From contig JABDHB010000001.1 in the NCBI GenBank assembly GCA_013285775.1, positions 1 to 52,526 on the forward strand: DNA of 52,526 bases. The letters run 5' to 3'. This document shows positions 1 to 52,526 of this stretch, piece after piece. Within the stretch, counting starts at the first letter, position 1, and each line of letters opens with the position of its first letter. The translations under genes and the position numbers were made by a program. A model generated the notes under the pieces. That model worked only from the letters and a program-made list of their open reading frames with translations. It searched no databases and was not told the DNA's origin. The stretch comes from Chlamydiota bacterium. GTDB taxonomy: Bacteria; Chlamydiota; Chlamydiia; Chlamydiales; Rhabdochlamydiaceae.

Positions 1-65
1 TCATGGATCATGTATTTTTGTCGTGTACAGAGATATACAATAAATAATTTCTTCTTTCTTAAAAT

Positions 66-362
66 TTGATGATTATTCATGATCAAAAATTTCGAGGAGA
101 GCAGAAAATTATGGTATTTTCGATTTGTCTAGCGATTTTGGGACTGCTATTTATCTACCTAGAGTTTTTTCTTCCTGGCTGGGTCTTAGGGATAGGAGGA
201 GGATTGCTGATCATATTTAGCATAGCCCTATTTCTTGGAGAAACAACGGCTCTTATGCCAGTCTTTATTTTTGTGGGAATCCTTTCTATTTTAGCTGTAT
301 ATACTTGCAATTTAGCCCTTAAGAGACGTGTAAAGCTCAAAAAAGATGAAGATCTTAATTGA
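66..362 (+). CDS. small hydrophobic membrane protein, family unknown
   Basis: 98-aa ORF. It has 2-3 hydrophobic helices (ICLAILGLLFIYLEFFLPGWVLGIGGGLLIIFSIALFL, MPVFIFVGILSILAVY) and a basic tail. The start is ambiguous between ATG 66 and ATG 111 (MVFSICL). Confidence 0.45.
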   Translation: MMIIHDQKFRGEQKIMVFSICLAILGLLFIYLEFFLPGWVLGIGGGLLIIFSIALFLGETTALMPVFIFVGILSILAVYTCNLALKRRVKLKKDEDLN

Positions 363-394
363 ATCTTAATTGCAAAACGGTATAATCCTAGGCT

Positions 395-1162
395 ATGACA
401 TGTTGTAGCGTTTTTCCTGTAATTCCTTGTTTGGAATCTTACGATGATAAGTGGCGTGATATCTGCGGCAAAAAAATATATGCTGATGGCTCTAGCTTTG
501 AACCAAAAATTTATACGGTAAGTACCACAAGTGGAAATGTTTTTCTCAAAACGGAAAGTGCAGATATTAGTTTGATTTCAGCCCTGATGATTCCCGGATA
601 TGCGCTTTACGGTGCAGCTTCCATTGTGTTTCATACTTTAAGAATTTTCCCGGATCTTTATGTTCATCTTAAAGAGGGGGAGATCTGCAATGCGCTCGTA
701 GCTGTAGCAATAGATATTTGGAACATCATTAGAGACCTCATTTATACCCCTCTTCTCATGTTAGCTGCGCTCTATGGCATTTTGTTTTCTCATGAAGGAA
801 GAGAGCTTATGGCTATGCTCGATCTTTCTTGGCATCATGGCGTAAATTATGAAGGAGACTATAGAAATACTCTTATTAAGAGGGAGCAATCACAACTGCG
901 GAAGCTAGAGAGTTCTAAGGATCTTACACCTGAAGACGTAGCCAAAAAACAGGAACTTACCGATAAGTTTAAAGATATGAGTGATTTCAAAGTTTTTTGG
1001 ACAGCTGCGAAAGCGGCCAAAGTGTTCTATCTTCCTTGGTGCATGCAATCTCGAGGGAATGTCCGTAAGTCAAATATTTCTGTTGTTTGGGACCGTACTG
1101 ACGATACAACGAAAAAACTTCTCAAAGAGAGGCTTAATCTTGCTCCAGTGGCTCCTCAATAG
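395..1162 (+). CDS. hypothetical membrane protein with two hydrophobic segments and a charged C-terminal half
   Basis: 255-aa ORF. Hydrophobic segments ISLISALMIPGYALYGAASIVF and LVAVAIDIWNIIRDLIYTPLLMLAALYGILF are followed by a Lys/Glu-rich region. No recognisable family. Its 3' end overlaps the convergent FliO-like ORF by 29 nt. Confidence 0.55.
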   Translation: MTCCSVFPVIPCLESYDDKWRDICGKKIYADGSSFEPKIYTVSTTSGNVFLKTESADISLISALMIPGYALYGAASIVFHTLRIFPDLYVHLKEGEICNALVAVAIDIWNIIRDLIYTPLLMLAALYGILFSHEGRELMAMLDLSWHHGVNYEGDYRNTLIKREQSQLRKLESSKDLTPEDVAKKQELTDKFKDMSDFKVFWTAAKAAKVFYLPWCMQSRGNVRKSNISVVWDRTDDTTKKLLKERLNLAPVAPQ

Positions 1163-1550
1163 GGGTTAGCACCCTCACTTCGAGCTGAGACTCAGAGACT
1201 AGCATCTTTTTTCCCCCAATTTCTACAACGTAAAGAAGTGTTTTAGAGCTAAGAGAGCGCTTTTCTAAAATTTTTACCGTTACATTTTGATTCATAAACC
1301 TCATCCGCCCTTGCGACAGCCTTTTAAGGGCCCAGAAGGTGAGGAACACTAAAACCAACAATCCGACCAAGGAAAGGATCATCTTGAAAAAGGCATGCTC
1401 ATAGGAAGGGGTTTCTGGGAGCATTTCAGGCTGCACAGGAGCAACCTCTTGAGTTTGAGCTGTGGCAGGAGATGGTGTAGGTGTAGGAACATCTTCAGCG
1501 TAAGTATAGGTAAAGAACACCAGTAAAAGGATGTAAAGAATTTTTTTCAT
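1134..1550 (-). CDS. FliO-like small membrane protein (signal peptide, Pro/Thr-rich linker, one TM, FliO-type C-terminal domain)
   Basis: 138 aa. The layout is MKKILYILLLVFFTYTYA signal, a PTPTPSP linker, TM ILSLVGLLVLVFLTFWAL followed by KRL, then VTVKILEKRSLSSKTLLYVVEIGGKKMLVSESQLEVRVL. This mirrors E. coli FliO as I recall it (TM..AAWLVKRL..LKISASASLGARERVVVVDVEDARLVLGVTAGQINLL). Confidence 0.6.
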   Translation of the reverse strand: MKKILYILLLVFFTYTYAEDVPTPTPSPATAQTQEVAPVQPEMLPETPSYEHAFFKMILSLVGLLVLVFLTFWALKRLSQGRMRFMNQNVTVKILEKRSLSSKTLLYVVEIGGKKMLVSESQLEVRVLTPIEEPLEQD

Positions 1551-1607
1551 AGCTAGTCCTTATTTCTTAGATAAGTAATAATATCGCATAAAAGTGGCGG
1601 TAAGGCA

Positions 1608-2546
1608 ATGATGAAAGTGATCGAATTGAATTTAGCAGCAGCAAAAAAAAGAAAATCTAAGCAAACAGGATTTATCCATCACTGCTACGAAGATCCAAAA
1701 AACAGTGATACAATCCCCGTGATCGAAAATTTTTGCTACGCTGAAGCCCTTTTAAGAAGCCGTCTTGCGGAAAATGTTTTGGAAGGAAGAGCTCTTTTAG
1801 AAAAGCTCAAAGCTTTTGAGATTGATGGGCTATATCCTGTTTATCTGCATGAATACCCCAATTGCAGAGTTAAAAAGCCTGAGAGCATAAAAACAGCTCT
1901 GCCCGAGAACTGGCATCCCAGGTTTCACGCATTTATTGAAGATAAGCAGCAGGAAAAAGGGGAGCCAGAACTCACGTTAGACGATTTAAGGATGGGACAG
2001 CTTTACAATTCTTTTTCTAAAAGGGCTCTTACTGATCATCCGGTCCATTTAAGAGCTTCTCTCATAGAGCCGTCTGAGGTTCTAAACATTGAGAACAATG
2101 ATCCATTTGTAAGAAGACTCAGCGAAAATACGTTTAAAATTTGGTGGGGTGATCAGAGTGTTACCCACACATTTGCTCTTTTTACAAAAGGGAAGCTTGA
2201 AAAAATTTCTGAAGAAGAGTTTTTAATCTATTTGCCTGAAGAGCATTTAGAAGAAGAAGCTTTAGAAATTAAGTGCTTTTTGAATATGCATGAGGAGAAT
2301 AAAATTACCATGAAAGCCAGCACTTTTAAAGTGGCAGAGGTAGTTGAGATTTCTTCCAAAGAGTTAAAAATAGAACTAAGCTTTTATGCAGATGAGGGGA
2401 ATTTTTTAGGCCACATCTCGCACGGGAATCGTCCCCATTCCAAAAATGTCACCATCTTTGATGCCTACGATTGGCAAATTGCTCTTCGTTCCATCAGAAG
2501 ACCCGTGAACTCTATCGTCCGAGCAATCATAAAAATCACAAGCTAA
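1608..2546 (+). CDS. hypothetical protein
   Basis: 312-aa uninterrupted ORF with a weak AAGG Shine-Dalgarno before ATGATG. No family recognised. Confidence 0.6.
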   Translation: MMKVIELNLAAAKKRKSKQTGFIHHCYEDPKNSDTIPVIENFCYAEALLRSRLAENVLEGRALLEKLKAFEIDGLYPVYLHEYPNCRVKKPESIKTALPENWHPRFHAFIEDKQQEKGEPELTLDDLRMGQLYNSFSKRALTDHPVHLRASLIEPSEVLNIENNDPFVRRLSENTFKIWWGDQSVTHTFALFTKGKLEKISEEEFLIYLPEEHLEEEALEIKCFLNMHEENKITMKASTFKVAEVVEISSKELKIELSFYADEGNFLGHISHGNRPHSKNVTIFDAYDWQIALRSIRRPVNSIVRAIIKITS

Positions 2547-2558
2547 AAACAAGATTTT

Positions 2559-2755
2559 TTCATCGCGAAGCGATTCTTTTTCTCTCTTCATCGCGAAGCG
2601 ATTTTGGAGTGCGCAAATTTATTTGCGCTTTTCTCTACATCGATTTATCGATGTATAAGCTAGCGGCGATGAATCGCCTTAAAGAAAAGCGCAAATAAAT
2701 TTGCGCACTCCAAAATCGCTTCGCGATGAAGAGAGAATCGCTTCGCGATAAAGAA
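2559..2755. repeat. Repeat family A, copy 1: ~197-bp nested palindrome
   Basis: The left arm ttcatcgcgaagcgatt..ttcatcgcgaagcgattttggagtgcgcaaatttatttgcgcttttc is mirrored by gaaaagcgcaaataaatttgcgcactccaaaatcgcttcgcgatgaa..atcgcttcgcgataaagaa. The centre carries catcgatttatcgatg and ggcgatgaatcgcc. It lies between the stop codons of convergent genes (1608..2546 and fabI). Confidence 0.9.
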
Positions 2756-2766
2756 GAGTTTCTTCT

Positions 2767-3663: not shown

Positions 3664-3720
3664 GATAGTTACCCCTTCAGTTAAGGTAACCTTTGTAACA
3701 TATTTCCTCGTTTAGAGGAA

Positions 3721-3924
3721 TTATTTCTTTTTTCCCATCATGAGGCGTCTCCACCCTTCAGCAGTCAGAATTTTTCGGTGGGATCCTTTAACGGGAGTTG
3801 AAGTTTTTTCTTTAGGTTTGTGTTCCATAATTTCCTTGCCTTTGGCCTTTTTTATCGGTTTTTTGACAACAGGAGCTTTCTTAACAGGTTTTTTGGCAAA
3901 TTTCTTCATCATCCGCTTAATCAT
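3721..3924 (-). CDS. small lysine-rich basic protein (possible nucleoid or histone-like protein)
   Basis: Start taken at ATG 3924 (MIKRMMKKFAKKPVKKAPVVKKPIKKAKGK...), 7-8 nt after AAGGGAGAG. 67 aa, very Lys-rich, with a C-terminal TAEGWRRLMMGKKK. The longer 84-aa ORF start at 3975 lacks an SD. Confidence 0.5.
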   Translation of the reverse strand: MIKRMMKKFAKKPVKKAPVVKKPIKKAKGKEIMEHKPKEKTSTPVKGSHRKILTAEGWRRLMMGKKK

Positions 3925-4066
3925 ACACAGGCTCTCCCTTAAGATTAGTATTAATAATTTTATTTTATTTGTCAATAAAATATTTAAATTGCAATTTGCC
4001 CGTGACTGTAATTGCGTAATATAGGATAATTTAAGCTAGCAATAATAAACTTATACAGGAGGCAAT

Positions 4067-4510
4067 ATGAGTACTATAGGAGCAGCAGGAGCGGGGTCAT
4101 CAGCAGCAGGTTCTTTTGCAGAGACAACTGTTAAGACTCTCTTGCAATTGGAAGAAGAAAATGCCTTGAACATGGCAAACGAAAAGCATATTGCTGCCTC
4201 TGAAGCTTTCTCTTCTGCTTTCAACACGTTCGAGAAATACATAAAAGTAATTGGTATTGTGGCAATTATCGGTCTTGGGGTGATAGCTTTAGGAGTTTGC
4301 TGCAGATTTAATGTAGGAGCTCTTCCAGACGTTCTCTCTAAGCAATATGCTTGGATTCCGTTAGTTGTAGGTGGCGTAGCTTTAACAACGCTTCCTTTTT
4401 CCTTGAATGTTGCTAACTGTAAATACAAAAACAGCCAGAACGTTAAGGCTAGGCATGCGTATAATGCTCTATATCATAAAAAGCTAGGTATATCATATGT
4501 ACGTTTCTAG
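4067..4510 (+). CDS. candidate inclusion-membrane (Inc-like) protein with a bilobed hydrophobic domain
   Basis: 147 aa with a strong SD (AGGAGG, 5 nt before the ATG). Two ~18-aa hydrophobic segments (VIGIVAIIGLGVIALGVCC and WIPLVVGGVALTTLPFSL) are separated by a 16-aa loop. The N-terminus is small-residue-rich (MSTIGAAGAGSSAAG). Confidence 0.6.
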   Translation: MSTIGAAGAGSSAAGSFAETTVKTLLQLEEENALNMANEKHIAASEAFSSAFNTFEKYIKVIGIVAIIGLGVIALGVCCRFNVGALPDVLSKQYAWIPLVVGGVALTTLPFSLNVANCKYKNSQNVKARHAYNALYHKKLGISYVRF

Positions 4511-4618
4511 TAGCATCATGCTTGAGAGAATCTTCGCGCACTGCAAAAGATAGATGACTAACGGAAGAAAGAAAGAGAGTTCAATTCTCTTAAGGTCCAT
4601 TGGGTAAGGTGGCTTTTC

Positions 4619-4811
4619 TAGCCCAACGGGCTAAAACTGTGTAGCCTAGGGCATCGCCCTAGGTAAACGGGAAAAAATAAAATCGCAGCCTGTAGGGCTG
4701 CAACAGGGCCATAACTTTGATATTCTGTTGCAGCCCTACAGGCTGCGATTTTTATGGTGCATTTTTCCTAGGGCGATGCCCTAGGCTACAGAGTTTTAGC
4801 CCGTTGGGCTA
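4619..4811. repeat. Repeat family B, copy 1: ~193-bp palindrome built from three hairpin modules
   Basis: Module order is agcccaacgggct / cctagggcatcgccctagg / gcagcctgtagggctgc, then a centre, then gcagccctacaggctgc / cctagggcgatgccctagg / agcccgttgggct. A partial direct re-duplication of the flank extends to ~4867. Confidence 0.9.
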
Positions 4812-4870
4812 TTTGGAGAAAATTTTCCTGGGCTAGATAATTTTACTCGTTGGGCTAATTTGGAGAGAGA

Positions 4871-6123: not shown

Positions 6124-6730
6124 GGAGCACTCGTTTCCTCCCATTGTTGCACAGATTGTCCCAACATTGACAGGGCTGATTGCTGAAAGTGAAAGGGGCG
6201 CGCGCTCTTTCTTAAAACAATTTGCAACCCATATTCCCCTTTTTTTACTAAACGAACACACAACCGATTCTGCCATCGCTGATTTCATTAATCAGTATAC
6301 AGGAACCTGGGGTCTTATTTCCGACGCAGGCCTTCCATGCCTTGCAGATCCAGGCGCTAAACTCGTTGCTCTTGCGCGCAAAAAAACCATCCCCATTAAA
6401 GCGATCACTGGTCCTTGCTCAATCACTCTAGCGATCATGCTCTCAGGAATTCCCAGCCAAGCTTTCACTTTTCACGGTTATCCTAACAAAGATCTTCTCT
6501 CCCTCCAAAAAAACCACACCCATATCTTTATCGAAGCTCCTTACCGTAACCAAAAATTTCTCGAGCAACTCATCAAAACCCTCCCCGATAAAGCCCTCCT
6601 CTGCACAGCCACCGACCTTACAGCTCCCACAGAAGAAGTGATCACTCTTCCCGTTGCTTCTTGGAAAAAACACCCTCTTCCCGAAATCAACAAAAGACCT
6701 ACGGTCTTTTTGTTGAACGTTGAACGCTGA
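6080..6730 (+). CDS. SAM-dependent methyltransferase, tetrapyrrole-methylase fold (RsmI/YraL-like)
   Basis: Conserved N-terminus MMYLLPNLL. and the motif GLISDAGLPCLADPGAKLVALARKKTIPIKAITGPCSITLAIMLSG. Start chosen at ATG 6080; the ORF opens at 6059. The last codons (LLNVER-stop) lie inside repeat family F. Confidence 0.7.
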   Translation: MMYLLPNLLDQGALKEHSFPPIVAQIVPTLTGLIAESERGARSFLKQFATHIPLFLLNEHTTDSAIADFINQYTGTWGLISDAGLPCLADPGAKLVALARKKTIPIKAITGPCSITLAIMLSGIPSQAFTFHGYPNKDLLSLQKNHTHIFIEAPYRNQKFLEQLIKTLPDKALLCTATDLTAPTEEVITLPVASWKKHPLPEINKRPTVFLLNVER

Positions 6731-6795
6731 ACGATGAGCTGAAGAAAGAAAGAGTCCCTCTTCAGTTCAGCGTTCATCATTCATCGTTCAGCGTT
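6712..6795. repeat. Repeat family F, copy 1: imperfect inverted repeat built from (t)gaacg units
   Basis: gttgaacgttgaacgctgaacgatgagctgaag, a loop, then cttcagttcagcgttcatcattcatcgttcagcgtt. The right arm (6760..6795) is identical over 36 nt to 33191..33226. Confidence 0.75.
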
Positions 6796-9913: not shown

Positions 9914-9987
9914 GGGGTATTAGCTCAGTTGGTTAGAGCGCCTCGTTGACATCGAGGAGGTCAGCTGTTCGAGTCAGCTATATCCCA
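9914..9987 (+). tRNA. tRNA-Val (anticodon GAC)
   Basis: Manual cloverleaf fold. Acceptor GGGGTAT/ATATCCC, D stem GCTC/GAGC, anticodon stem CCTCG/CGAGG with loop TTGACAT, variable loop AGGTC, T arm AGCTG-TTCGAGT-CAGCT, discriminator A. CCA is not encoded. Confidence 0.9.
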
Positions 9988-10002
9988 CACTTTGAACGCA
10001 GA

Positions 10003-11218
10003 ATGCAAAACGCAAATCTAAAAATAAAGCATGCAGCAGCCCAAGTCATGGCTGCCGCTGTTCTTGACGTATTTCCTGGTACAATACTGGTAGAGGGACG
10101 GGGCCTTAGGCAAGGTTTCTATTACGATTTTATCTTTACATTTTCCTTTAGAGAGGAATTTCTTGTTCTCATTGAAGAGAGGATGAGAAAGATTATAAAG
10201 GAAAAAAGAGAGATCAAAAAAATCGAGATGGTCCCGGTAAGCGCAGCTGGGTTTTTAAGGCACAAAGGACAGCCGCTTAGAGCTGAAGCCGCAGAAAGCT
10301 CTCCTGATACGTTGATTTCGCTTATGCAGATTGGGGAACATGTCGACTATCAAGAATTTGATTTTTCTGAAGATGTTGGGATAGTAGGATCTTTTAAATT
10401 ACTCAAATTTAGTGAGGTGGGCGGGGCTACCCGTATTTTGGGGACAGCTTTTTCTTCTAAAGAGGAGCTTAAAGCGGCTTTAAAAGAAGAGATTTCAATC
10501 GAGCCTTGTGATCATAGAAAAATAGGGGAAGAGATGAAACTCTTCGCTCCTGTAGAGGATTCAGGCTATTGGAGATGGCTTCCTAATGGGGATATTCTGC
10601 GCCAGCAGATGCTAGAACTTTTACCAAAAACTTTTTTAAGATACGTGCATGATGAAAATGCTGCAGGAGAAGGGATGCTTGATTCCAGGGGGTATTTTCT
10701 AGATCAAACAACTCATTTAAAAGAACCCTTGCAATTCATCGTAAAATTATTTAAACTTTGTGGAATAAAAAAGTACAGGTCTGTTGCTGATCAATTTTTG
10801 ATCGAAGACGATCTGGGCAGGGAGTGGCCGGGCCCTTATGTTGAGCAAGAAGTTTGCTCAGTGTTTGGTCCGATGGAACGGTTTGTGGCTGTGATGCTCG
10901 AACAAAACGGGGGGGAAGTTGCCCTTCTTTTTGGCTCCTGAGCAAGTAAGGGTTATCGTTATAGACGATATGCCTGAAGAGTTTATTTGCCACTTGCGCT
11001 CTATTGGAATACGTGCTACGGTAGATGCCCGTGATGCACAATTAAAGATGAGGGTGCGAGAAGCTCTTTTAGAGCGAGTTCCTTATATTATTGTGATAGG
11101 GAAAAAAGAACTGCAAACGAACAGCGTCACTGTAAGAGCTTATTCTGCAGTAGAACAGACAATGCTAGTTGATAAACTATTGGATAGGTTAAAACTTGAG
11201 AATCAACAGAGAGATTAG
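10003..11218 (+). pseudogene. thrS: thrS-like remnant: ThrRS second-additional (editing) domain, collapsed class II core and anticodon-binding domain, split by a frameshift at a G7 tract
   Basis: Frame 1 (to 10941) contains GFYYDF, FKLLKFS, RILGTAFSSKEELKAALKE, DHRKIGEEMKLF and GPMERFVAVMLEQ. Frame 2 (from 10919) continues LPFFLAPEQVRVIVI...GIRATVDARDAQLKMRVREA.L.RVPYIIVIGKKE, an anticodon-binding domain. The frames switch at ggggggg (10909..10915). About 170 aa of catalytic core and the TGS domain are missing. Editing-site residues (HxxxH, CRGPH) are not conserved. Confidence 0.7.
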
Positions 11219-11705: not shown

Positions 11706-11719
11706 AAATAAGGTCTACT

Positions 11720-11923
11720 ATGGCAAAAGTAAAACAAAAAACAAACAAAGCTGTTAAGGCGAGATTCAAAGTGACTGGAACTGGGAAACTACTACGTGGA
11801 AAACCTGGAAGCCGACACATTTTAACAAAGAAATCTTCAAATCGTAAACGCCGTTTACGTAAAGATGCTCTTGTTGATCATGGACAAACAAAAATGTATG
11901 CACGCCTCATGGGTGTAGCGTAA
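11720..11923 (+). CDS. rpmI: 50S ribosomal protein L35
   Basis: 67 aa (MAKVKQKTNKAVKARFKVTGTGKLLR...) in the canonical position after infC. Confidence 0.95.
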   Translation: MAKVKQKTNKAVKARFKVTGTGKLLRGKPGSRHILTKKSSNRKRRLRKDALVDHGQTKMYARLMGVA

Positions 11924-11942
11924 GAAATATTAGGAGAATTTT

Positions 11943-12299: not shown

Positions 12300-12327
12300 A
12301 CCTGGGCTGGTTCACACACACCCTATA

Positions 12328-12496
12328 CCTAGGGCGATGCCCTAGGCTACAGAGTTTTAGCCCGTTGGGCTAAGGGATTGAGCTAACCTAGGTTGGTGAT
12401 GCTGTGAGCTTTTAGCCCGAAGGGCTAGAACTCTGTAGCCTGGGGCATCGCCCCAGGTTAGGTCCAAAATCTAATCGCAGCCTGTAGGGCTGCAAC
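12328..12496. repeat. Repeat family B, copy 2 (same modules, different order), inside the rplT-pheS spacer
   Basis: cctagggcgatgccctaggctacagagttttagcccgttgggcta (12328..12372), its inverted partner agcccgaagggctagaactctgtagcctggggcatcgccccagg (~12413..12457), and aatcgcagcctgtagggctgcaac (12473..12496). Confidence 0.9.
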
Positions 12497-13649: not shown

Positions 13650-13660
13650 GATCAAACAAA

Positions 13661-13688
13661 AAAACCCACCAATCGGTGGGTTTTTTTA
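13661..13688 (+). terminator. rho-independent terminator after tRNA-Ser
   Basis: aaacccacc-aatc-ggtgggttttttttt: a 6-bp GC stem flanked by an A-run and followed by a T-run. Confidence 0.7.
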
Positions 13689-13690
13689 TT

Positions 13691-13880
13691 TTTCCATTCT
13701 TCATCGCGAAGCGATTTTGGAGTGCGCAAATTTATTTGCGCTTTTCTCCACATCGATTTATCGATGTGTGCGTGGTGGCGGAATGCTTGTTAGATACAGC
13801 TTGTTCATCGATGAATCGATGAAGAGAAAAGCGCAAATAAATTTGCGCACTCCAAAATCGCTTCGCGATGAAGAATGGGA
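13691..13880. repeat. Repeat family A, copy 2
   Basis: tttccattcttcatcgcgaagcgattttggagtgcgcaaatttatttgcgcttttctc ... gagaaaagcgcaaataaatttgcgcactccaaaatcgcttcgcgatgaagaatgggaaa. The centre has catcgatttatcgatg and catcgatgaatcgatg. It lies between tRNA-Ser and the convergent MORN gene. Confidence 0.9.
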
Positions 13881-13936
13881 AATTTTTGCCCACGCGCTGT
13901 CGCGGCGTCAGTTTATGTTATGATTTGATAGTGAAT

Positions 13937-15286
13937 TCACTGCGTAGAAACTAATTTGAGAGATCCTTCTACTTGGCCATTTTTCCACTTCCCAATATAG
14001 ACTGCTCGATTTGGATAAATAAGCGTTCCATGTCCATGGAATCTACCTTCCTGAAAATCTCCAATATAGGTGGATTTTGGAGAAAGAGAAGTTTTTACGC
14101 CTCGTCCATGTGCACCTGCATTAGTAAGCTCTCCCTCGTATTCGTCTCCATTAGAGTAAATAATCTTACCCTGTGTTAAGGTGCCATCTCTCCATTGCCC
14201 TACATATTTGTCTCCGGAAGAGAAAGTGAGTGTTCCTTCTCCATGCTGTCTGTCCTCTTGCCATTGTCCAACATATTTGATCCCAGAGGCCAAAGTGAGT
14301 GTTCCTTCTCCATGCTTTCTGTCATTTTGCCATTGTCCCACATAGGTGTCTCCATTCAGCCAAGTCTGTGTGCCTTCTGAAAGTACGCCTTCAAGCCACT
14401 TTCCTATATAAGTCGTTCCTGAATGATTAATAATTGTGCCAAATCCATTTACAACAAAATTACAACATGCTGTCAAAAGCTTTAGTGAATAACTAGATGA
14501 TAAACCATTTAAAAAATTCAGAGAATTCAGGTTAGGGAATAAAGGAGGTTGTCCTAAACGCGAGCTTTTAGAAAGGACTGTGATAATTTTTTCTGAGGTG
14601 AAATTTCGAGCAGCGGTGAAATTTATAGAAGTAATTTGGGAAAGTCTTTCAGTAGGTAGTGTTTGTAAACAGTTTAGATGTTTCAAGGAAATGAAATTAA
14701 AGTCGAAGTTAGAAAAATCGATTTCTGTGAGATTGGTTAAATAGTTGGAAATTCTTTTCCAATCAGAGCCTTTTCCAAAAATAATTAATGAAAACAAGTG
14801 AATTTTTTCTAAAGAAAGACTGGTTTTTGTCTTGATTTGTTGGATTGCGACTGTTCTAGAAGCTGTATAAAATGGTCTGGAAGTCGTTCTTATAGCTAAA
14901 ATTTCTTTACAATCTAGAAATTGCAAAATGCTGGTTACGTGATCATTTTCTTCGAAAATTTTTGGCGTAGGTGTTTGTGGTTTAGTGGGCAACTCGGGAG
15001 GGAGATTAGGAGAAACTTCGGGGATAATAGAAGGAACTAAATTTACTCGGTTTTTCCAAATATAAGCAGAGGCAATAAAGTTTATAAAAGCAAGGCCTCC
15101 GCTAGCGTATGCAGTATCCAATAATTGTGTGGAAAATTGGGGTAATCTAATAAAAGTTAAGGTCATAAGAATCAGGGCAATTGCTGTAAAGGCAATGCCT
15201 ATGATGGCCGCAGACCTCATGCGCGAGCTTGCTACATGATAGGAAACTGGTTCTTGAGGGAGTGTTTTACTAATTAATATTGTCAT
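13937..15286 (-). CDS. eukaryote-like protein: N-terminal bilobed hydrophobic anchor, F-box-like motif, LRR-like region, C-terminal MORN repeats
   Basis: 449 aa. TM pair AAIIGIAFTAIALILMTLTFI and GGLAFINFIASAYIW. F-box-like ILQFLDCKEILAIRTTSRPFY (about aa 119-140). Leu/Asn-rich LRR-like stretch (LTNLTEIDFSNFDFNFISLKHLNCLQTL...NLNSLNFLNGL). About 6-7 MORN units (YVGQWQNDRKHGEGT, YVGQWQEDRQHGEGT, YEGELTNAGAHGRG, YIGDFQEGRFHGHGT, YIGKWKNGQVEG). Confidence 0.8.
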   Translation of the reverse strand: MTILISKTLPQEPVSYHVASSRMRSAAIIGIAFTAIALILMTLTFIRLPQFSTQLLDTAYASGGLAFINFIASAYIWKNRVNLVPSIIPEVSPNLPPELPTKPQTPTPKIFEENDHVTSILQFLDCKEILAIRTTSRPFYTASRTVAIQQIKTKTSLSLEKIHLFSLIIFGKGSDWKRISNYLTNLTEIDFSNFDFNFISLKHLNCLQTLPTERLSQITSINFTAARNFTSEKIITVLSKSSRLGQPPLFPNLNSLNFLNGLSSSYSLKLLTACCNFVVNGFGTIINHSGTTYIGKWLEGVLSEGTQTWLNGDTYVGQWQNDRKHGEGTLTLASGIKYVGQWQEDRQHGEGTLTFSSGDKYVGQWRDGTLTQGKIIYSNGDEYEGELTNAGAHGRGVKTSLSPKSTYIGDFQEGRFHGHGTLIYPNRAVYIGKWKNGQVEGSLKLVSTQ

Positions 15287-18905: not shown

Positions 18906-19048
18906 TTTTCTCTGCGTTCTCTGCGGCTCAGTCTTCACTCTGCGCCGATGAAATTCAGCATCCAGACAACAAGACCCTGCCTTGTTGGTTGAATACCAAA
19001 CTCCATCAGCGCAGAGTGAAGACTGAGCCGCAGAGAACGCAGAGAAAA
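18906..19048. repeat. Repeat family E, copy 1
   Basis: The arm ttttctctgcgttctctgcggctcagtcttcactctgcgccgatgaaatt is mirrored by ctccatcagcgcagagtgaagactgagccgcagagaacgcagagaaaa. It lies between the convergent M16 protease and lpxD genes. Confidence 0.9.
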
Positions 19049-23018: not shown

Positions 23019-23122
23019 TGGCCGTATTAAGGTTAGTTTGTAACTCGCAATCATAAAAAAAAATGGGAAAAATGCAAAGAGCAAAATTTATTTTAGCTAA
23101 GAAGAGAGGGGAAGAGAAGAAA

Positions 23123-23231
23123 GATCGGGCACGGGCACGCACGCGGGCTCGGGCTCGAAAGAAAAACAAACTTAAGTCTTCTTCTCTTTCCGGATTCGAG
23201 CCCGAGCCCGCGTGCGTGCCCGTGCCCGATC
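23123..23231. repeat. Repeat family D: GC-rich hairpin with perfect 37-bp arms
   Basis: gatcgggcacgggcacgcacgcgggctcgggctcgaa (23123..23159), a 35-nt loop, then the exact reverse complement (23195..23231). It lies between the recR stop and the bamA start. Confidence 0.9.
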
Positions 23232-23247
23232 TTTTTTTTCTTAGATT

Positions 23248-26595: not shown

Positions 26596-26623
26596 TGAAA
26601 CGAAACTCAAAGAGGAAGGAAAA

Positions 26624-26866
26624 ATGCTTATGTCAATTGAAAAAGAAGTGATTGATATCGTTGTGGAACAACTCGGCGTTGACCCAACAGATGTTACACT
26701 AGAAAAGTCGTTTGTAGAAGGATTAAACGCAGATTCACTAGACCTTACAGAGCTCATCATGACTTTCGAAGAGCGTTTTGGCTTTGAGATTTCTGAAGAA
26801 GAAGCAGAAAAACTCAAAACTGTAGGTGACGTCGTCAGCTACATCAAAACAAAGAAAGGTGAATAA
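26624..26866 (+). CDS. acpP: acyl carrier protein
   Basis: 80 aa with the [20 protein letters not shown] phosphopantetheine-attachment motif (DSLD). The start could instead be ATG 26630. Confidence 0.95.
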
Positions 26867-26870
26867 TTAA

Positions 26871-26900
26871 ATCGAGCCCTTCATGGGCTCGATTGTTTTA
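26871..26900 (+). terminator. hairpin terminator after acpP
   Basis: atcgagccc-ttcat-gggctcgat followed by tgtttta. 9-bp stem and a short T-rich tail. Confidence 0.55.
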
Positions 26901-26907
26901 AGTATTT

Positions 26908-27105
26908 CTTCATCGCGAAGCGATTCTTTCTTTATCGCGAAGCGATTTTTTTCTCTCTTCATCGCGAAGCGATTTTGGAGTGCGCAAATTTATTTGCGCT
27001 TTTCTCTACATCGATTTATCGATGTACAAATTGGCGGCGATAAATCGCCTTGAAGAAAAGCGCAAATAAATTTGCGCACTCCAAAATCGCTTCGCGATGA
27101 AGAGA
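26908..27105. repeat. Repeat family A, copy 3 (asymmetric: three left and one right atcgcgaagcgat modules)
   Basis: Same core arms as copies 1 and 2 (..cgattttggagtgcgcaaatttatttgcgcttttctc / gaaaagcgcaaataaatttgcgcactccaaaatcgcttcgcgatgaag). The centre has catcgatttatcgatg and ggcgataaatcgcc. It lies between convergent acpP and potD. Confidence 0.9.
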
Positions 27106-27131
27106 GAAAGAATTCTTAAGTTCTTCTTTCT

Positions 27132-27167
27132 TTCGAGCCCGAGCCCGTGTGCGAGCCCGCGCCCGAT
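27132..27167. repeat. Repeat family D, solitary half-copy
   Basis: ttcgagcccgagcccgtgtgcgagcccgcgcccgatc resembles the right arm at 23195..23231, and its purine-rich flank is similar. No inverted partner is nearby. Confidence 0.7.
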
Positions 27168-27194
27168 CTTCTCTTTTCTTTTCCCCTCTTCTAT

Positions 27195-32832: not shown

Positions 32833-33079
32833 GAATTCCATCAGCGCAGAGTGAAGACTGAGCCGCAGAGGGCGCAGAGGAAGAGGGAAAGAGCTTTTTT
32901 TTCGCAGAGGCGAAAAAGAAAGCACATCCACTCGCTTCGCTCGGAAAATGCAGTTGCAATCGACTTCCCGAGCGCAGCGAGTGAGGATATTCTTTTTTTG
33001 TCTCTGCGAAAAAAGGAATTCTTTCTCTCTTCCTCTGCGCCCTCTGCGGCTCAGTCTTCACTCCGCGCTGATGGAATTT
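32833..33079. repeat. Repeat family E, copy 2: 247-bp multi-layer palindrome (weaker symmetry out to ~32787..33128)
   Basis: Outer arms gaattccatcagcgcagagtgaagactgagccgcagagggcgcagaggaagag / ctcttcctctgcgccctctgcggctcagtcttcactccgcgctgatggaattt. Inner pairs ttttcgcagag/ctctgcgaaaa and atccactcgcttcgctcgg/ccgagcgcagcgagtgaggat. The arms are in the opposite relative order to copy 1. Confidence 0.9.
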
Positions 33080-33190
33080 GGCATTCACTGTAAAAGCTCG
33101 TTAGGTTAATGCGTATAGGCCTGCGACCTGGGCTGTAACATAACAGCCCTATCGGGCCTAAGAATTCAGAGCTCTTTCACTTCCCTATCT

Positions 33191-33226
33191 CTTCAGTTCA
33201 GCGTTCATCATTCATCGTTCAGCGTT
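33191..33226. repeat. Repeat family F, copy 2 (solitary arm)
   Basis: cttcagttcagcgttcatcattcatcgttcagcgtt is identical to 6760..6795. It covers the last codons and stop codon of acpS. Confidence 0.85.
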
Positions 33227-37618: not shown

Positions 37619-37803
37619 ATTCCTATATAAAAAAATTTAATTGTTAAATTCCTGTCTAAACGATCGTCCGATTTATTGTCTAATTAAATTTTAAACTTCA
37701 CAAAAAAAAGATCAACGCAAAGGCGCATACAAGTGGTATGCGACAGTTTGGGCTGTATCATTTCGGACTTGCAGGTCTGAAGAAAAAATTTATAGTTAAT
37801 TTG

Positions 37804-39216: not shown

Positions 39217-39231
39217 AGTTCTATAGAATTT

Positions 39232-39334
39232 AAGATTAACGCAAAGGCGCAAAAGCGCGAAGACGCAAAAAGAATTGAAAATATTATAAAATTCTTTTTG
39301 CGTCTTCGCGCTTTTGCGCCTTTGCGTTGATCTT
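39232..39334. repeat. Repeat family C, copy 1: hairpin with ~45-bp arms
   Basis: aagattaacgcaaaggcgcaaaagcgcgaagacgcaaaaagaatt, a 13-nt AT loop, then aattctttttgcgtcttcgcgcttttgcgcctttgcgttgatctt (one mismatch). It lies between convergent stops and touches the oppF stop codon. Confidence 0.9.
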
Positions 39335-40256
39335 AACTTGGAGTCGCATATAAGTGACACGCCACGGTTTGGGTTGGGGTGAGTTGAAGGAGTTCTGGCT
39401 TGGTCTTGTGGCATTTTTCCATGGCAAAGGGGCAGCGGTTTGCAAAGACACATCCTTGGGAAGGGATGTGAGAGATATCCCCTTTTAGGAGGATCTTTTT
39501 ACGGGCTCTTTCTTTTTTTGGGTCTGGGATAGGGATGGCAGAGAGGAGGGCTTGGGTGTAGGGGTGCTTGGGGTTTTTATAGAGGTCTTCAGATGAAGCA
39601 AGCTCCAAGATGTTGCCAAGATACATGACAGCTACTCTATTGGAGAGGTATTTTACCAAGCTAAGATCATGGGAAATGAATAGATAGGTAAGTCCTAGCT
39701 CTTTTTGGAGCTTTTTTAGAAGATTGATGATCTGGGCTTGGATCGAAACATCGAGTGCAGAAATCGGTTCATCGCAGACGATGAATTCGGGATTAAGTGC
39801 TAGGGCTCTTGCAATGCCGATCCTCTGCCTTTGTCCTCCACTAAATTCATGTGGATATCGATGCATAAACGTGGGACAGAGGCCCACAAGTTCGAGGAGT
39901 TCCTTGATTTTCGATGAGGGGATCGTTTCTTTGTGGATTTTAAAGGGTTCCTCGATGATTTCTTTTACACTCATACGGGGATTTAAAGAAGAGTAGGGAT
40001 CTTGGAAAATGATCTGCGCTTTTTTGCGCCACTCGCTCAAATCAAGGTTTAAAAGGTTTTGATCTCGATAAAGTATTTCTCCAGAATTAGGTTCGTGCAG
40101 GCGCAGAAGTGTTTTCCCAAGCGTGGATTTTCCTGAACCACTTTCTCCAACAATCCCAAGAGTTTCTCCTTGAAAAATCTCAAGTGAAACCTCATCTAAT
40201 GCTTTAACGGGGCCAAAATGCTTTTTGAGTTTTTTTATTTTGTAGAGAGCCAGCAT
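39333..40256 (-). CDS. oppF: oligopeptide/dipeptide ABC transporter ATP-binding protein
   Basis: 307 aa. Walker [10 protein letters not shown], signature [15 protein letters not shown], Walker B IVCDEP, and an Opp-type C-terminal Cys-containing extension. Confidence 0.9.
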
Positions 40257-41200: not shown

Positions 41201-41300
41201 AGATTCAACGCAAAGACGCAAAAACGCGAAGACGCAAAAAGAATTAAAATCTTTATAAAAATTTTTGCGTCTTTGCGCTTTTGCGTCTTTGCGTTAATTT
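41201..41300. repeat. Repeat family C, copy 2 (intercistronic, between oppC and oppD)
   Basis: agattcaacgcaaagacgcaaaaacgcgaagacgcaaaaagaatt, an AT loop, then atttttgcgtctttgcgcttttgcgtctttgcgttaattt. Confidence 0.9.
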
Positions 41301-43053: not shown

Positions 43054-44617
43054 GCTTTAAATCTATGTGTCCTGTGTTTGTAAAAACGACCCCTTTAACA
43101 TAAGGCTTTTGTAAATAGCTACTTGTATAAAAATAAATCGGTGCAATCGGCATATCATCTAAAAGTATCGTTTCTGCTTGATGGAGGATCTCTTCTCTTG
43201 TTTTTGGGTCGGTTGCCTGTTTAGCCATTTGGATGTATTTATCGTAGTTGAGGTTATTCCATCCTGTTCTCTCGGTATTAGATTCATCTAAAAAAGTCAC
43301 AGGATCATTATAACCCGCAACTCCTCCCATTCTTGCTACCTGATACTGATGTTGATTCGTCTCGTTTAGAAAAACCTTCCATTCTTTATTTTCGAGTTTT
43401 ACATCCACTCCAAAGGCTTCCTTCCATTGTTGCTGGATGGCCTGCGCAATTTTATGATGCCCGTCTGAAGTGTTATAGCTCAATGTAATTTTTGGGAGAG
43501 TTCCCCCTAATTCTTTTAGCCCAAGAGCAAATAATTTTTTTGCATTTGCAACATCGTGATCTAAATAAGCTGGTTTTGATGGTTCTTTCCAAAGATTTGG
43601 AGGGACGTAGGAGAGAGCAGGCTTTTGTTTTCCTTGTAAAATATTTTCAATGATTGTTTGCCTGTTGATAGCCAAAGTAAATGCCTTACGTATATTGACA
43701 TTATTAAAAGGGGGTTTTTCTGTATTAAAGATATAGAAATAGGTGCCGGCAAGGGGGGTTGTCTGTAGAGTTTGTGTTTTTAAGATCGATTGTAAGGAAT
43801 CCAACGGGATAGTAGAAAAAGGCTGTCCTGCCCAGTCAAGCTCTCCACTTTCGTACATCGAAAGCTCTGTTGTTTCATCTTGAATAATAGGAAAGAAAAG
43901 TTTTTGAAGCTTCACTTGATCTTTGTCCCAATAAGTTTCATTTTTCACCATGGTTACTTCATCATAGTGTTTCCAAGAAACCATTTTAAAAGGGCCATTT
44001 GCAAGATCGCCTTTATAAGGGAAGAAATAGGAGGTAGCTGCAAGTTCTGTAAAATAGGTGGTAGGATGTTCCAGATTGACCTGAAGCGTTTTATCGTCGA
44101 TTACTTTTATTCCAAGCTCTTCTTTTGTTGCCTTTCCAGCTTTAAAAGCTTTTCCATTTTTTATCACAAAAAGTTCATTTGCAAATTCAGAGGGGAAATT
44201 TGGAGAAAGAATTGTTGTCCAGGTATCTGCAAAATCTTGAGCTGTAACAGGTGAGCCATCTGACCACTTGGCATCTCTCAAATAAAATGTATACTCCATT
44301 TTATCTTCACTTGTTTCGAAGTGGCTGGCAATCCCAGGGCCATCATCTCGTAAAAGTCCTTCTAAACACATCCGGATCAGGTTAATCGAGGTCGTATCGG
44401 TGGCTCTGCGGGGATCAAATGTAGGAGGCTCAGTATGGATGCTCATCCTAAGCTCTTGAGAGGTAGGAGGGGGGGAGTGGTTTGTATCGCAGGAAGAGAG
44501 AAAGATTAACGCAAAGACGCAAAGACGCAAAGACGCAAAAAGAGAAAATATATCATAAAATTTATTTTTGCGTCTTTGCGCCTTTGCGTCTTTGCGTTTA
44601 AAAGGGACTATGACCAT
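43034..44617 (-). CDS. oppA: oligopeptide ABC transporter substrate-binding lipoprotein (SBP family 5)
   Basis: 527 aa. Family-5 SBP body (..DPRRATDTTSINLIRMCLEGLLR..). The N-terminus KRKDAKAQRRKNK-FYDIFSLFASLRLCVFALIFL-SSC looks like a lipoprotein signal with lipobox LSSC. That N-terminus is encoded by repeat family C, copy 3. Confidence 0.85.
   Translation of the reverse strand: MVIVPFKRKDAKAQRRKNKFYDIFSLFASLRLCVFALIFLSSCDTNHSPPPTSQELRMSIHTEPPTFDPRRATDTTSINLIRMCLEGLLRDDGPGIASHFETSEDKMEYTFYLRDAKWSDGSPVTAQDFADTWTTILSPNFPSEFANELFVIKNGKAFKAGKATKEELGIKVIDDKTLQVNLEHPTTYFTELAATSYFFPYKGDLANGPFKMVSWKHYDEVTMVKNETYWDKDQVKLQKLFFPIIQDETTELSMYESGELDWAGQPFSTIPLDSLQSILKTQTLQTTPLAGTYFYIFNTEKPPFNNVNIRKAFTLAINRQTIIENILQGKQKPALSYVPPNLWKEPSKPAYLDHDVANAKKLFALGLKELGGTLPKITLSYNTSDGHHKIAQAIQQQWKEAFGVDVKLENKEWKVFLNETNQHQYQVARMGGVAGYNDPVTFLDESNTERTGWNNLNYDKYIQMAKQATDPKTREEILHQAETILLDDMPIAPIYFYTSSYLQKPYVKGVVFTNTGHIDLKHAYIHQ
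44502..44602. repeat. Repeat family C, copy 3 (inside the 5' coding end of oppA)
   Basis: aagattaacgcaaagacgcaaagacgcaaagacgcaaaaagag, an AT loop, then tttatttttgcgtctttgcgcctttgcgtctttgcgtttaaa. Confidence 0.9.
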
Positions 44618-47166: not shown

Positions 47167-47174
47167 TTCACCCT

Positions 47175-47190
47175 TTATCGCTTCGCGATA
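47175..47190. repeat. solitary repeat family A hairpin module
   Basis: ttatcgcttcgcgata lies 9 nt after the rlmI stop. It is the same atcgc-ttc-gcgat module that tiles the family A arms. Confidence 0.6.
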
Positions 47191-51230: not shown

Positions 51231-51263
51231 AAATAGCTTGCGCAAGTTTTGGGCCTAAGTTAT

Positions 51264-51716
51264 ATGGAAACTATGAAATTCAGATTTATCAGGACACAAG
51301 ACCCTGAATATACGACAGAGCTCATGCTCCGTTGGGAGAATTTGCGAAAGCCGCTGGGACTGCCCCCTGGCTCTGAAGTTCTCCCTGAAGATAAAGAAAG
51401 CCTCCACTATACTGCTTATGATAAAAAGCAAATGGTAGGCTGCGTCGTCTTTTATCCAGAGAATAAAGAGAAAGGGCGCCTCTATCAAATGGCTGTTAGC
51501 GAAGAATATCGGGGAAAAGGGTTTGGGAGGCAGATGATTGCTACTCTCGAGCAGTTTCTTGCAAAAAACGGCTACAAAGAAGTCTATCTTTTCGTACGTG
51601 ATGAGAGCATCGGCTTTTACAAAAGAATGGGGTATCATTTAAACGGTGAGAGCAGCCAGCTCGCTGGCGTGCCCCACCTTTTAATGACGAAAACGATTTC
51701 AGTTTTGGACGAGTAA
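51264..51716 (+). CDS. GNAT family N-acetyltransferase
   Basis: 150 aa from ATG 51264. Acetyl-CoA-binding motif LYQMAVSEEYRGKGFGRQMI, then FYKRMGY. Confidence 0.85.
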   Translation: METMKFRFIRTQDPEYTTELMLRWENLRKPLGLPPGSEVLPEDKESLHYTAYDKKQMVGCVVFYPENKEKGRLYQMAVSEEYRGKGFGRQMIATLEQFLAKNGYKEVYLFVRDESIGFYKRMGYHLNGESSQLAGVPHLLMTKTISVLDE

Positions 51717-52361
51717 AAACTGTTTTTCTTCTTCTGTTCCATTAATCGTAGAAAGATCAGGACATTTCGCTTTAAATGCGTCTAGCGAATTTGTTGCAAT
51801 AAGAGAGTGAAGAGGGATTGTTGTATGGCGTTGCAAAAAGCTTGTAATGTCGTTAATCTCACGACTTTCTTTCTCAAGCTTACAGTGACTAGTCTGGTAC
51901 ATTTTATTGGCTAACGCAGCGATTATACCACCCAAAGCGCAAGACGCAAAAGCAGTTCCAACAATAGCAAAGGAATAGCCTAATTGCGTTCCTTCTAGGT
52001 TGTTCAGTTGGCTAAATGCCTGATGATATTGAGAAACTAAATCGGAGGGAGCTTGTGACCAACCACCATGCATCATGATTTGATTCCGTAACAAGTCAAT
52101 CTGAGAGCTTGATGCATCAACTTGTGGTTGGAGTGCATGGGCCTTTTGTCCGCAGATCACAGCTGCTAAAACACATCCCCCAATAAGGATAAGAATTGTG
52201 ACAATGGCAATTTTACGCACTCTTTGATCCCGGTTGTGCCTATCGACAAACGTTTGTCTGTTGATTGTTTGCCCGTCGTCATTTGTAAAATCTTTCCAGC
52301 CATCCCGTGCAGCGCCAGTGCTTACATATTCAGTACCATTCATTGATGGAATTTTAACCAT
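51699..52361 (-). CDS. hypothetical membrane protein with two well-separated TM helices
   Basis: 220 aa. IAIVTILILIGGCVLAAVICG and FAIVGTAFASCALGGIIAALA are separated by ~70 aa. AT-rich upstream region. No recognised family. Confidence 0.55.
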   Translation of the reverse strand: MVKIPSMNGTEYVSTGAARDGWKDFTNDDGQTINRQTFVDRHNRDQRVRKIAIVTILILIGGCVLAAVICGQKAHALQPQVDASSSQIDLLRNQIMMHGGWSQAPSDLVSQYHQAFSQLNNLEGTQLGYSFAIVGTAFASCALGGIIAALANKMYQTSHCKLEKESREINDITSFLQRHTTIPLHSLIATNSLDAFKAKCPDLSTINGTEEEKQFLLVQN

Positions 52362-52526
52362 AATAACCCCCTGTTATCTGTTTTATTTTTAAGTAGTATA
52401 TAATAAACATATTAATATTTAATAAATTTAATTGATTAAATTTATTTGTATTGTTATTTTGAAGTATTAATAATTTTAATTTAATGAGGATGGGGCTATT
52501 CTTCGTCCCTCAGGGACATAGGTTTA

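Follow-up and report, generated by a model that had tools for sequence, protein, structure and literature searches.

General features of the region

The window analysed here, which makes up an entire contig, is a 52,526-nt stretch of a Chlamydiota bacterium of the Rhabdochlamydiaceae (GenBank assembly GCA_013285775.1, contig JABDHB010000001.1, positions 1 to 52,526). It has a GC content of 41% and carries chlamydial housekeeping genes in an order typical of chlamydiae, including fabI, holA, folC, infC-rpmI-rplT-pheS, lpxD-ompH-bamA, recR, fabHDG-acpP, potABCD, trxB, acpS, lgt, oppABCDF, rimO, rlmI and an autotransporter gene. The spacers between these genes contain six families of palindromic repeats (A to F), which are the subject of this work.

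The nearest relatives found in a search with RecR were JGI Ga0207097 (79% identical, hereafter the sister) and GCA_034680565.1 (75%, the third genome), both uncultured; the next-best matches, about 63% identical, included metagenome-assembled genomes (MAGs) of Rhabdochlamydiaceae and Simkaniaceae. The initial assignment of the sequence to Chlamydiae was therefore correct. An exact scan with a 27-mer of family A gave no matches in GTDB genomes and none in JGI metagenomes. The organism of the window is absent from these collections, and its relatives were therefore used to judge dispersal. Parts of the window were reproduced with 0 mismatches by Logan contig L001 (run SRR8423049, an independent assembly), and two other Logan contigs of this run (L292 and L293), placed on the window by exact 60-mers, carry window proteins exactly. 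Thus, the hairpins are not an artefact of a single assembler.

Palindromic repeat families of the window

Mechanical repeat finding recovered each of the six families that the initial annotation had delimited, at the same coordinates or within a few bases of them (Table 1). Between unlinked loci, the copies of one family have an identity of 84-100% over 40-160 nt; in family B, for instance, 4767-4811 and 12328-12372 share 45 nt without a mismatch (100% identity). The full copies all form near-perfect hairpins, with a minimum free energy (MFE) of -41 to -181 kcal/mol and z-scores of -9 to -24 relative to mononucleotide shuffles. The identity between unlinked loci and the hairpin z-scores exclude chance as the origin of the repeats. 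The elements total 2040 nt, which is 3.9% of the window, in agreement with the earlier estimate of about 1.9 kb or 3-4%, and about 30% of the DNA between its genes (6.3 kb). They had been described as GC-rich islands, and this holds relative to the empty spacers (36-58% GC against 25-41%), but not otherwise.

The arms of families A and B are composed of small hairpin modules, as had been proposed for all families, whereas those of families C, D, E and F are made of short tandem oligomers (6-8-mers): ACGCAAAG repeated four times, CGGGCA/CGGGCT, CTCTGCG and GTTGAAC. Since the arm heptamers of families C and E are only one transition apart (CGCAAAG and CGCAGAG), the description of the families as unrelated in sequence was too strong for this pair. 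A unit of family A has three hairpins, each 8 nt from the next, the first with a GAA loop and the second of 8 bp, and these units form inverted doublets with a variable number of the h1 module. The distribution of h1 over the two arms (three and one in A3, two and two in A1) is a mosaic variation resembling that of bacterial interspersed mosaic elements (BIMEs). By its architecture, family A is probably similar to repetitive extragenic palindromic (REP) sequences and to the REP doublets forming hairpins (REPINs).

Six of the seven convergent junctions carry an element, while the divergent (promoter) spacers are mostly free. The elements also reach into coding sequences, as had been noted, in three cases (C1, C3 and F1). 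In the oppA frame (44508-44617, minus strand) the pyrimidine-rich arm of C3 encodes LRLCVFALIFLSSC, which includes the hydrophobic core (h-region) and lipobox of a signal peptide and aligns with the signal peptide and lipobox of the sister OppA, LNFLIPILLLGFSC. The purine-rich arm would encode KRKDAKAQRRK, and a TTG within C3 would give MRLCVFALIFLSSC.

The bias towards the 3' ends of genes, with nearly all convergent junctions filled and the promoter spacers mostly empty, might be explained if the hairpins were selected by the host as bidirectional terminators or stabilisers of mRNA 3' ends, which arose and were kept in place, their similarity reflecting constraint or gene conversion. The modules h1, h2 and the h3 of family B resemble intrinsic terminators on both strands, the first 20 kb of the window contain 43 terminator-like sites against 18.9 +/- 4.7 expected, and D1 ends with eight T. 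On the other hand, a terminator does not need an identity of 84-100% over 40-160 nt at unlinked loci, copies are found within operons (C2 in oppD|oppC, B2 in rplT|pheS) and at the 5' end of a coding sequence (C3), and many elements, such as C1 and A1, have no T-run after the stem, as is the case for the hairpins formed by whole elements. Moreover, native terminators already adjoin A2 and A3: those at 13658-13687 (tRNA-Ser) and 26870-26894 (acpP) are classical and bidirectional, and the family A element starts 3-10 nt further on. This arrangement suggests insertion next to existing hairpins.

Turnover of the repeats in related genomes

The sister has a palindromic family of its own (the CTCTGTGG family, with arms CTCTGTGGTTTCTTGTCTCTGTGGTT), which on contig L002 is located at the junctions that are occupied in the window by D1 (recR|bamA) and E1 (lpxD|M16), and at recR|bamA a different variant again is found in the third genome. 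Over 775 kb of sister DNA, exact 26-mers identified at least 110 left and 110 right arms of this main family, with 80 paired copies, and about 6% of the 775 kb consists of sequence that occurs at least three times; JGI metagenomes contain at least 120 stretches matching the sister 26-mer. Families C and D are common to the window and the sister, which has about 5-7 loci of the former and 13 of the latter. Nested D-type hairpins occupy the middle of CTCTGTGG-family elements of the sister (L103 740-940 and L041 8440-8620), resulting in hybrid mosaic elements. The proposal of a dispersing system similar to REPs, BIMEs or miniature inverted-repeat transposable elements (MITEs), rather than of local hairpins, is thus supported by more than 100 copies in the sister and by turnover at orthologous junctions.

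Alignment of orthologous regions showed junctions with different families or with none, so that the copies are not all conserved in position and sequence. By synteny, five junctions are filled in the window and in the sister by different families (g03|fabI, rplT|pheS, recR|bamA, lpxD|M16 and the end of oppF), and at three sites only one of the two genomes has an element (oppD|oppC, oppD|oppF and oppA|rimO). At oppD|oppF an element of the sister separates two genes that overlap in the window, and C3 is missing from the oppA|rimO spacer of the sister.

A recent gain or loss was observed when two JGI assemblies representing one strain of the sister were compared. L029 contains, at 2580-2688, a 109-nt core of a CTCTGTGG-family element that L013 lacks; the flanks are 100% identical, and this is the sole indel of at least 15 nt in the 71.6 kb overlap of the assemblies. 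The core is bounded by a 9-nt direct repeat, CTCTGTGGT, which belongs to the repeated motif of the element itself and is not an independent target. An alignment of 60 copies of the sister family revealed no consistent target-site duplication (TSD); in its place, the flanks consist of additional motif copies in inverted orientation.

The system is therefore one of dispersed repeats with a fast turnover, in which gain, loss and nesting occur on a short time scale. The differing families at orthologous junctions, the filled and empty sites, the 109-nt indel and the nesting contradict the idea of ancient fixed regulatory hairpins. Of the observations in relatives, the occupation of the same junctions in three genomes would fit host-selected terminators, but different families at these junctions and the gain or loss of a 109-nt element between near-identical strains would not. 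Since unlinked copies are so alike, some copies lie inside operons and the repeats turn over, an origin in place is unlikely, and we regard the terminator explanation as improbable. Terminator-proximal DNA is probably preferred or tolerated by the elements and some copies were probably co-opted, which is compatible with their being mobile.

A candidate Y1 transposase and its probable link to family B

The absence from the window of a transposase, an integrase, a single-tyrosine (Y1) or REP-associated tyrosine transposase (RAYT) gene and a CRISPR array, as reported initially, was confirmed by profile scans, tblastn with Y1 queries, a repeat search and Rfam. The scans with Pfam and NCBIfam covered 43 of the 46 listed open reading frames (ORFs), i.e. 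all except oppD, oppB and potB; no CRISPR-like interspaced array was found among the direct-repeat families, no dedicated CRISPR or tandem-repeat tool having been run. In Rfam, only tRNAs of the window passed the gathering threshold. The statement that no mobilising enzyme is in sight is thus true of the window, but not of the sister.

Searches with Y1 queries (tblastn) identified one Y1 gene in about 1 Mb of the sister (L048:3788-4234). Its product matches the Pfam family Y1_Tnp (E = 2e-24) and the NCBIfam model transpos_IS200 (70.8 bits, cut-off 55), and its best relatives of solved structure are the transposases of IS608 and ISDra2. In an alignment of 12 homologues the HxH, WQ and Y---Q--HH motifs are invariant; the latter reads YIVSQKEHH in the sister protein, with Y113, Q117, H120 and H121 invariant in all 12, and the C-terminus (...FDEKYLWD) is conserved. 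The Y---Q--HH motif, a conserved C-terminal domain and a low copy number are characteristic of TnpA-Y1 subclass 1.2 (Quentin et al. 2018, PMC6006769). Judging from these motifs, the sister enzyme is an IS200-like Y1 HUH protein with the signature of subclass 1.2.

The Y1 gene is flanked by composite units in inverted orientation (3688-3737, plus strand, and 4282-4331, minus strand). Each comprises hairpin 1 (GGCCAACGGCC), 9-12 nt, TAGCC and hairpin 2, and a third hairpin adjoins the gene. Homologous Y1 loci in other contigs (L125-L130 and L212), of which at least L127 has a chlamydia-like gene content, are flanked in the same manner by inverted units of hairpin 1, a linker, (T/C)AGCC and hairpin 2.

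A covariance model, R1, was trained on the eight flank units of L127-L130 only. Its five best matches in the window are the four arms of family B (E = 1.4e-5 to 8e-3, obtained with a shortened calibration) and an additional unit at 33114-33160. In 775 kb of the sister it has 34 matches (E < 0.1), comprising both flanks of the Y1 gene, which were outside the training set, and about 30 more units, many of them paired as inverted doublets with a spacing of 90-150 nt; DNA of unrelated bacteria (690 kb) gave only two matches, one of them beside another Y1 gene. The layout of B1 is that of the sister Y1 locus without the gene. A cognate Y1 gene flanked by family B units is absent from the window.

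Family B also has the tetranucleotide foot typical of REPs (GT[AG]G), here GTAG, which reads ...CTGTGTAG|CCTAGGGCATCGCCCTAGG and ...CTCTGTAG|CCTGGGGCATCGCCCCAGG, while the corresponding position in the relatives is ATAG or ACAG; such a foot is not found in families C-F. B1 and B2 are inverted doublets which form a larger hairpin, as REPINs do. Since R1, built from Y1 flanks of other contigs, matches all four arms of family B, this family is REPIN-like and probably mobilised in trans. In the strict sense it stands outside the RAYT system, as the sister protein misses the RAYT model (see below). We infer that a Y1 gene is present elsewhere in the genome of the window and moves family B.

The initial list of loci, correct as far as it went, was incomplete. 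It lacked, for example, the unit at 33114-33160, a weak candidate unit at 37727-37779 and further REP-like hairpins at the end of the window (52488-52526), which continue for 134 nt past it in L292. The latter cluster, read by eye as GTCCCTCAGGGAC-ATAGGTTTA-TAGCCAGGG..., GTGCCCCATCGGGGCAC..., was not recognised by R1 in the window or in L292.

The arm motif of family C in other phyla

Not all of the six families are specific to the lineage: C and D are both shared with the sister, and the motif of family C occurs in many bacterial phyla. The arm motif ACGCAAAGRCGCAAAGRCGCAAAG was found in at least 120 stretches of GTDB genomes; among the matches listed are Nostocales, Chloroflexota, Acidobacteriota, Planctomycetota, Verrucomicrobiota, Sorangium, Legionellaceae and several Chlamydiota MAGs, one of which belongs to the same JGI series as the sister. 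Many matches are inverted pairs forming hairpins, and one copy in Sorangium has nearly the layout of C1. Among 160 purine-strand arrays, a complementary array is located downstream in 66 and upstream in 16. The (ACGCAAAG)n hairpins often have the order purine arm, loop, pyrimidine arm, and (A/G)TCTCA is common as their 5' flank (GTDB loci L131-L250, IMG/VR loci L251-L289). In IMG/VR, the octamer motif was found in 39 stretches, compared with 2 for a permuted-octamer control (about 20-fold), while the only matches in a plasmid collection are two cyanobacterial plasmids without useful annotation. Variants related to family E (CGCAGAG) and to the main family of the sister (CACAGAG) are present at the same loci as C-type arrays, and at one locus a CGCAGAG arm pairs with a CTTTGCG arm via G-T/G-U pairs only. 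None of families A, B, D, E and F was matched in 1.2 Mb of loci from GTDB genomes and viral contigs, which had been chosen for their C-type arrays. A test of whether C-type arrays lie within ORFs was uninformative in high-GC genomes. No description of the octamer array was found in the searchable literature.

Hairpins of the (ACGCAAAG)n, (CGCAGAG)n or (CACAGAG)n type, which are found in Myxococcota and in some viral contigs as well, may represent an undescribed pan-bacterial class of octamer-array palindromes; a shared trans-acting partner or mechanism might explain their spread, and their distribution across phyla is open to phylogenetic profiling. Y1 enzymes of the subclass 1.2 type, for their part, may be domesticated and RAYT-like and maintain multi-hairpin REPIN-type populations in Chlamydiota and other phyla, which, if true, would mean an origin of REP systems independent of the RAYT clade. 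That the enzymes are domesticated and that the hairpins of families C, E and the sister main family form one such class, both together, is a tentative and rather doubtful proposition.

Proposed mechanism and alternative explanations

The most likely explanation of these data, which we favour with reasonable confidence, is that the hairpins are short, non-coding and non-autonomous elements that spread and turn over in one uncultured chlamydial lineage. They would settle mainly in the spacers at the 3' ends of genes, often beside or inside existing hairpins, and be tolerated there. A unit of family B, in which two or three small hairpins are combined with a foot reading GTAG and which is arranged in inverted doublets, might be moved by single-strand 'peel and paste' or by copy-out of hairpin units by a Y1 enzyme encoded elsewhere in the genome. 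Mobilisation by Y1 is most likely for this family, since the same type of unit flanks the single-copy Y1 gene in the sister and in related contigs. Families C-F are palindromes of the terminal inverted repeat (TIR) type with tandem-oligomer arms, which might move or be lost through a Y1 enzyme (that of family B or a second one), through a different transposase or by recombination of their internal direct repeats. Some copies have probably been co-opted as mini-terminators or, in the case of C3, as part of the OppA signal peptide.

Several points weigh against this explanation. None of the window families yielded a TSD or an empty site resolved cleanly to the nucleotide, the one polymorphic site of the sister may just as well have arisen by deletion between direct repeats, and the copy numbers of families A, B, E and F were counted in the window only. 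The sister protein misses the curated RAYT model REP_Tyr_transpos (23.8 bits, cut-off 80), and subclass 1.2 is generally reported to lack the terminal hairpin structures of the IS200 type (PMC6006769). A Y1 gene of the window genome itself was not found: contigs of six of the ten closest homologues were fetched (P0122-P0125, P0127 and P0131, from samples DRR654895, SRR31802034, ERZ28664350, ERZ27247318, SRR8426800 and ERR11571144), none of them from SRR8423049. With the shortened calibration of R1, three of the four matches to family B have E-values of only 1e-2 to 1e-3. Finally, neither Y1 genes nor B-type units are enriched near C-type arrays, a Y1 gene lying within 8 kb at 2 of 120 loci and R1 having the two matches in 690 kb mentioned above, so that family C is left unexplained by the Y1 enzyme.

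Another possibility is that families C-F and the CTCTGTGG family of the sister are classical MITEs, i.e. internally deleted derivatives of insertion sequences (ISs) of the DDE type with TIRs and TSDs, mobilised in trans. They do have long terminal inverted repeats and a centre that is non-conserved or asymmetric, the sister family exceeds 100 copies, the 9-nt direct repeat borders its only polymorphic copy, and a DDE transposase adjoins the Y1 gene in one related contig (L129). Yet self-comparison of the 775 kb of the first sister assembly gave no IS-typical repeat of at least 400 nt, the window has no DDE gene, the 9-nt 'duplication' is part of the element motif, and the 60 aligned copies, flanked by inverted motif copies, have no TSD in common. 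A MITE origin is, therefore, rather unlikely.

The repeats might also be generated without any enzyme of their own, by replication switching templates at hairpins, by slippage within the tandem oligomers and by gene conversion or ectopic recombination among copies, in a genome that lacks hairpin-cleaving nucleases and would tolerate them. Such processes would account for the tandem-oligomer arms of families C-F, with a variable number of units (C1-C3), for the difference in h1 number between A1 and A3, for mosaic, nested and inside-out arrangements (E2, D inside the sister main family, X/Y half-centres) and for the direct repeat that bounds the sole indel observed. They alter palindromes that already exist, but do not seed near-identical units of 100-200 nt at unlinked sites such as those in the opp operon, and the association of B-type units with a Y1 gene would be unexplained. 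We consider this explanation very improbable.

Coordinates of the elements and other features of the window

The positions of the elements are listed in Table 1.

Table 1. Palindromic elements of the window, their structure and genomic context
Element	Position	Structure or sequence	Context	Remarks
A, copy 1 (A1)	2554-2755		between convergent hyp (1608-2546) and fabI	MFE -135.6 kcal/mol, z -20
A1 arm modules		h1 ATCGCGAAGCGAT (two per arm), h2 GCGCAAATTTATTTGCGC, h3 ACATCGATTTATCGATGT		terminator-like on both strands
A, copy 2 (A2)	13690-13882		convergent with MORN-repeat gene	3 nt after terminator 13658-13687 following tRNA-Ser
A, copy 3 (A3)	26904-27115	h1 three times left, once right		10 nt after acpP terminator hairpin 26870-26894
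A, solo h1 module	47177-47189	ATCGCTTCGCGAT	11 nt past rlmI stop codon	
B, copy 1 (B1)	4619-4811	H1-H2-h3 / h3'-H2'-H1'		R1 E = 0.008, 0.004
B unit		H1 TAGCCCAACGGGCTA, 9-nt linker ending GTAG, H2 CCTAGGGCATCGCCCTAGG, then hairpin h3 GCAGCCTGTAGGGCTGC		
B, copy 2 (B2)	12327-12496	H2'-H1' / H1-H2 and solo h3	inside rplT-pheS spacer	R1 E = 1.4e-5, 0.0036
Extra REP unit of family B class	33114-33160 (minus)		between E2 and F2	R1 27.6 bits, E = 1.2e-5
C, copy 1 (C1)	39227-39339	outer stem spans oppF stop codon	convergent junction hyp|oppF	
C, copy 2 (C2)	41207-41295		within opp operon, oppD-oppC spacer	oppD and oppC abut in sister
C, copy 3 (C3)	44508-44598		oppA 5' end	site empty in sister
C, left-end fragment	37709-37727	GATCAACGCAAAGGCGCA		
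D, full copy (D1)	23112-23242		bamA-recR spacer	other palindromic families at this site in both relatives
D, half copy	27132-27176		adjoins A3	89% identical to right arm of D1
E, copy 1 (E1)	18906-19048		convergent M16 peptidase|lpxD	CTCTGTGG family at same junction in sister
E, copy 2 (E2)	32834-33087	arms in inside-out order; 107-nt centre, itself palindromic		
F, full hairpin (F1)	6712-6795		overlaps end of rsmI-like ORF	
F, half copy (F2)	33189-33226	38 nt		100% identical to 6758-6795

Two of the apparent spacers are partly filled by genes too short for the list of ORFs of at least 100 aa, which were named from sequence and position only: a 66-aa basic ORF at 11706-11942 between infC and rplT (the position of rpmI) and a 79-aa acidic ORF at about 26620-26860 after fabG (the position of acpP). 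The MORN-repeat gene next to A2 (13937-15286, minus strand) contains three tandem coding repeats of 69 nt (14182-14388, 62-80% identical), which are unrelated to the palindromes. The thrS-like region (9946-11196, about 1.25 kb) has a 331-aa ORF that matches only the N-terminal third of ThrRS and a separate 75-aa ORF that resembles by sequence the C-terminal anticodon-binding domain, the catalytic core being seemingly missing; a region of similar size in the sister suggests that it may be a conserved truncated paralogue or a pseudogene. A small ORF at 1134-1550 (minus strand), with neighbouring ORFs that have no family match, shows a FliO-like Pfam match (E = 3.4e-7), unusual in chlamydiae.

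Three Logan contigs end in A1, A2 and C3. These ends were rejected as proof of multiple copies, because a perfect palindrome that exceeds k in length interrupts a de Bruijn contig even if it is present in a single copy. The coincidence of the palindromes with the ends of short-read contigs matters for the recovery of MAGs.

Comparison with known systems

Chlamydiae are usually regarded as poor in repeats, and genome papers report repeats in bulk (in Waddlia, 4.9% in repeats longer than 200 bp). In agreement with the initial annotation, no repeat system of this kind described for Chlamydiae was found in the searchable literature, and no catalogued chlamydial repeat family matches the elements. 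The system described here is a variant of the REP/REPIN and MITE-like systems in a phylum without an earlier description of one. About one third of the intergenic DNA consists of palindromes with a fast turnover, which reshape operon spacers, abut terminators and supply a signal peptide.

In Rfam, sub-threshold matches in the window were to microRNA precursors and a few unrelated models, and were rejected as reflecting generic long hairpins. There were also weak matches of two arms of family B to Acido-Lenti-1 (RF01687), a motif that similarly has two hairpins and is found in Lentisphaerae, members of the Planctomycetes-Verrucomicrobia-Chlamydiae group, and in Acidobacteria; their scores (27.4 and 22.5 bits) are under the gathering threshold of 37.

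Rickettsia palindromic elements (RPEs) also reside in an obligate intracellular host, and like them C3 adds an in-frame coding sequence, to the OppA signal peptide. RPEs are mostly located within genes, whereas the copies described here are almost all intergenic, and the sequences are unrelated. With the Correia elements of Neisseria and other MITEs (Nezha, Chunjie) the elements share a length of 100-200 nt, long inverted repeats, more than 100 copies (in the sister) and insertions close to or inside genes and operons that do not destroy these. They differ in having neither a TA nor a consistent target duplication, no parent IS, unrelated sequences and tandem-oligomer arms.

Modular mosaics with a variable number of modules (the h1 modules of A1 and A3) and solo modules are also known from the enterobacterial BIMEs; these have unrelated sequences, the modules found here carry T-runs, and no motifs for integration host factor or gyrase were identified in them. 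TIRtrons with their TIRYT proteins (Di Nocera 2013, PMC3733652) and the palindrome-associated transposable elements (PATEs) derived from IS200/IS605 likewise have a Y1 gene flanked by inverted repeats of dispersed, moderately abundant families, and B1 has the layout of such a locus without the gene. TIRYTs are RAYT-like proteins of other clades, with none reported from Chlamydiae, and the ends of IS200/IS605 elements, unlike those seen here, are not inverted repeats.

The REP/REPIN-RAYT systems (Nunvar 2010; Bertels & Rainey 2011, PMC3116915; Ton-Hoang 2012) differ in several respects. The protein found here is IS200-like, with the subclass 1.2 signature, and falls outside the RAYT model; the sister genome is the only one in which it was seen. 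Two or three hairpins make up the composite unit, which measures about 50 nt or more, and the copy number is so far modest, with 5-6 units in the 52-kb window and the 34 R1 matches (E < 0.1) in 775 kb of the sister. In common with these systems are hairpin units with a tetranucleotide foot (here GTAG), inverted pairs of units that form a larger hairpin, an intergenic location at the 3' ends of genes, several families per genome and a single-copy gene for a Y1 HUH protein flanked by the same units in inverted orientation (here in the sister). If the link to Y1 is true, it would give a testable function to an uncharacterised branch of HUH/Y1 proteins and a second, independent REPIN-like partnership between host and element, in an obligate intracellular lineage.

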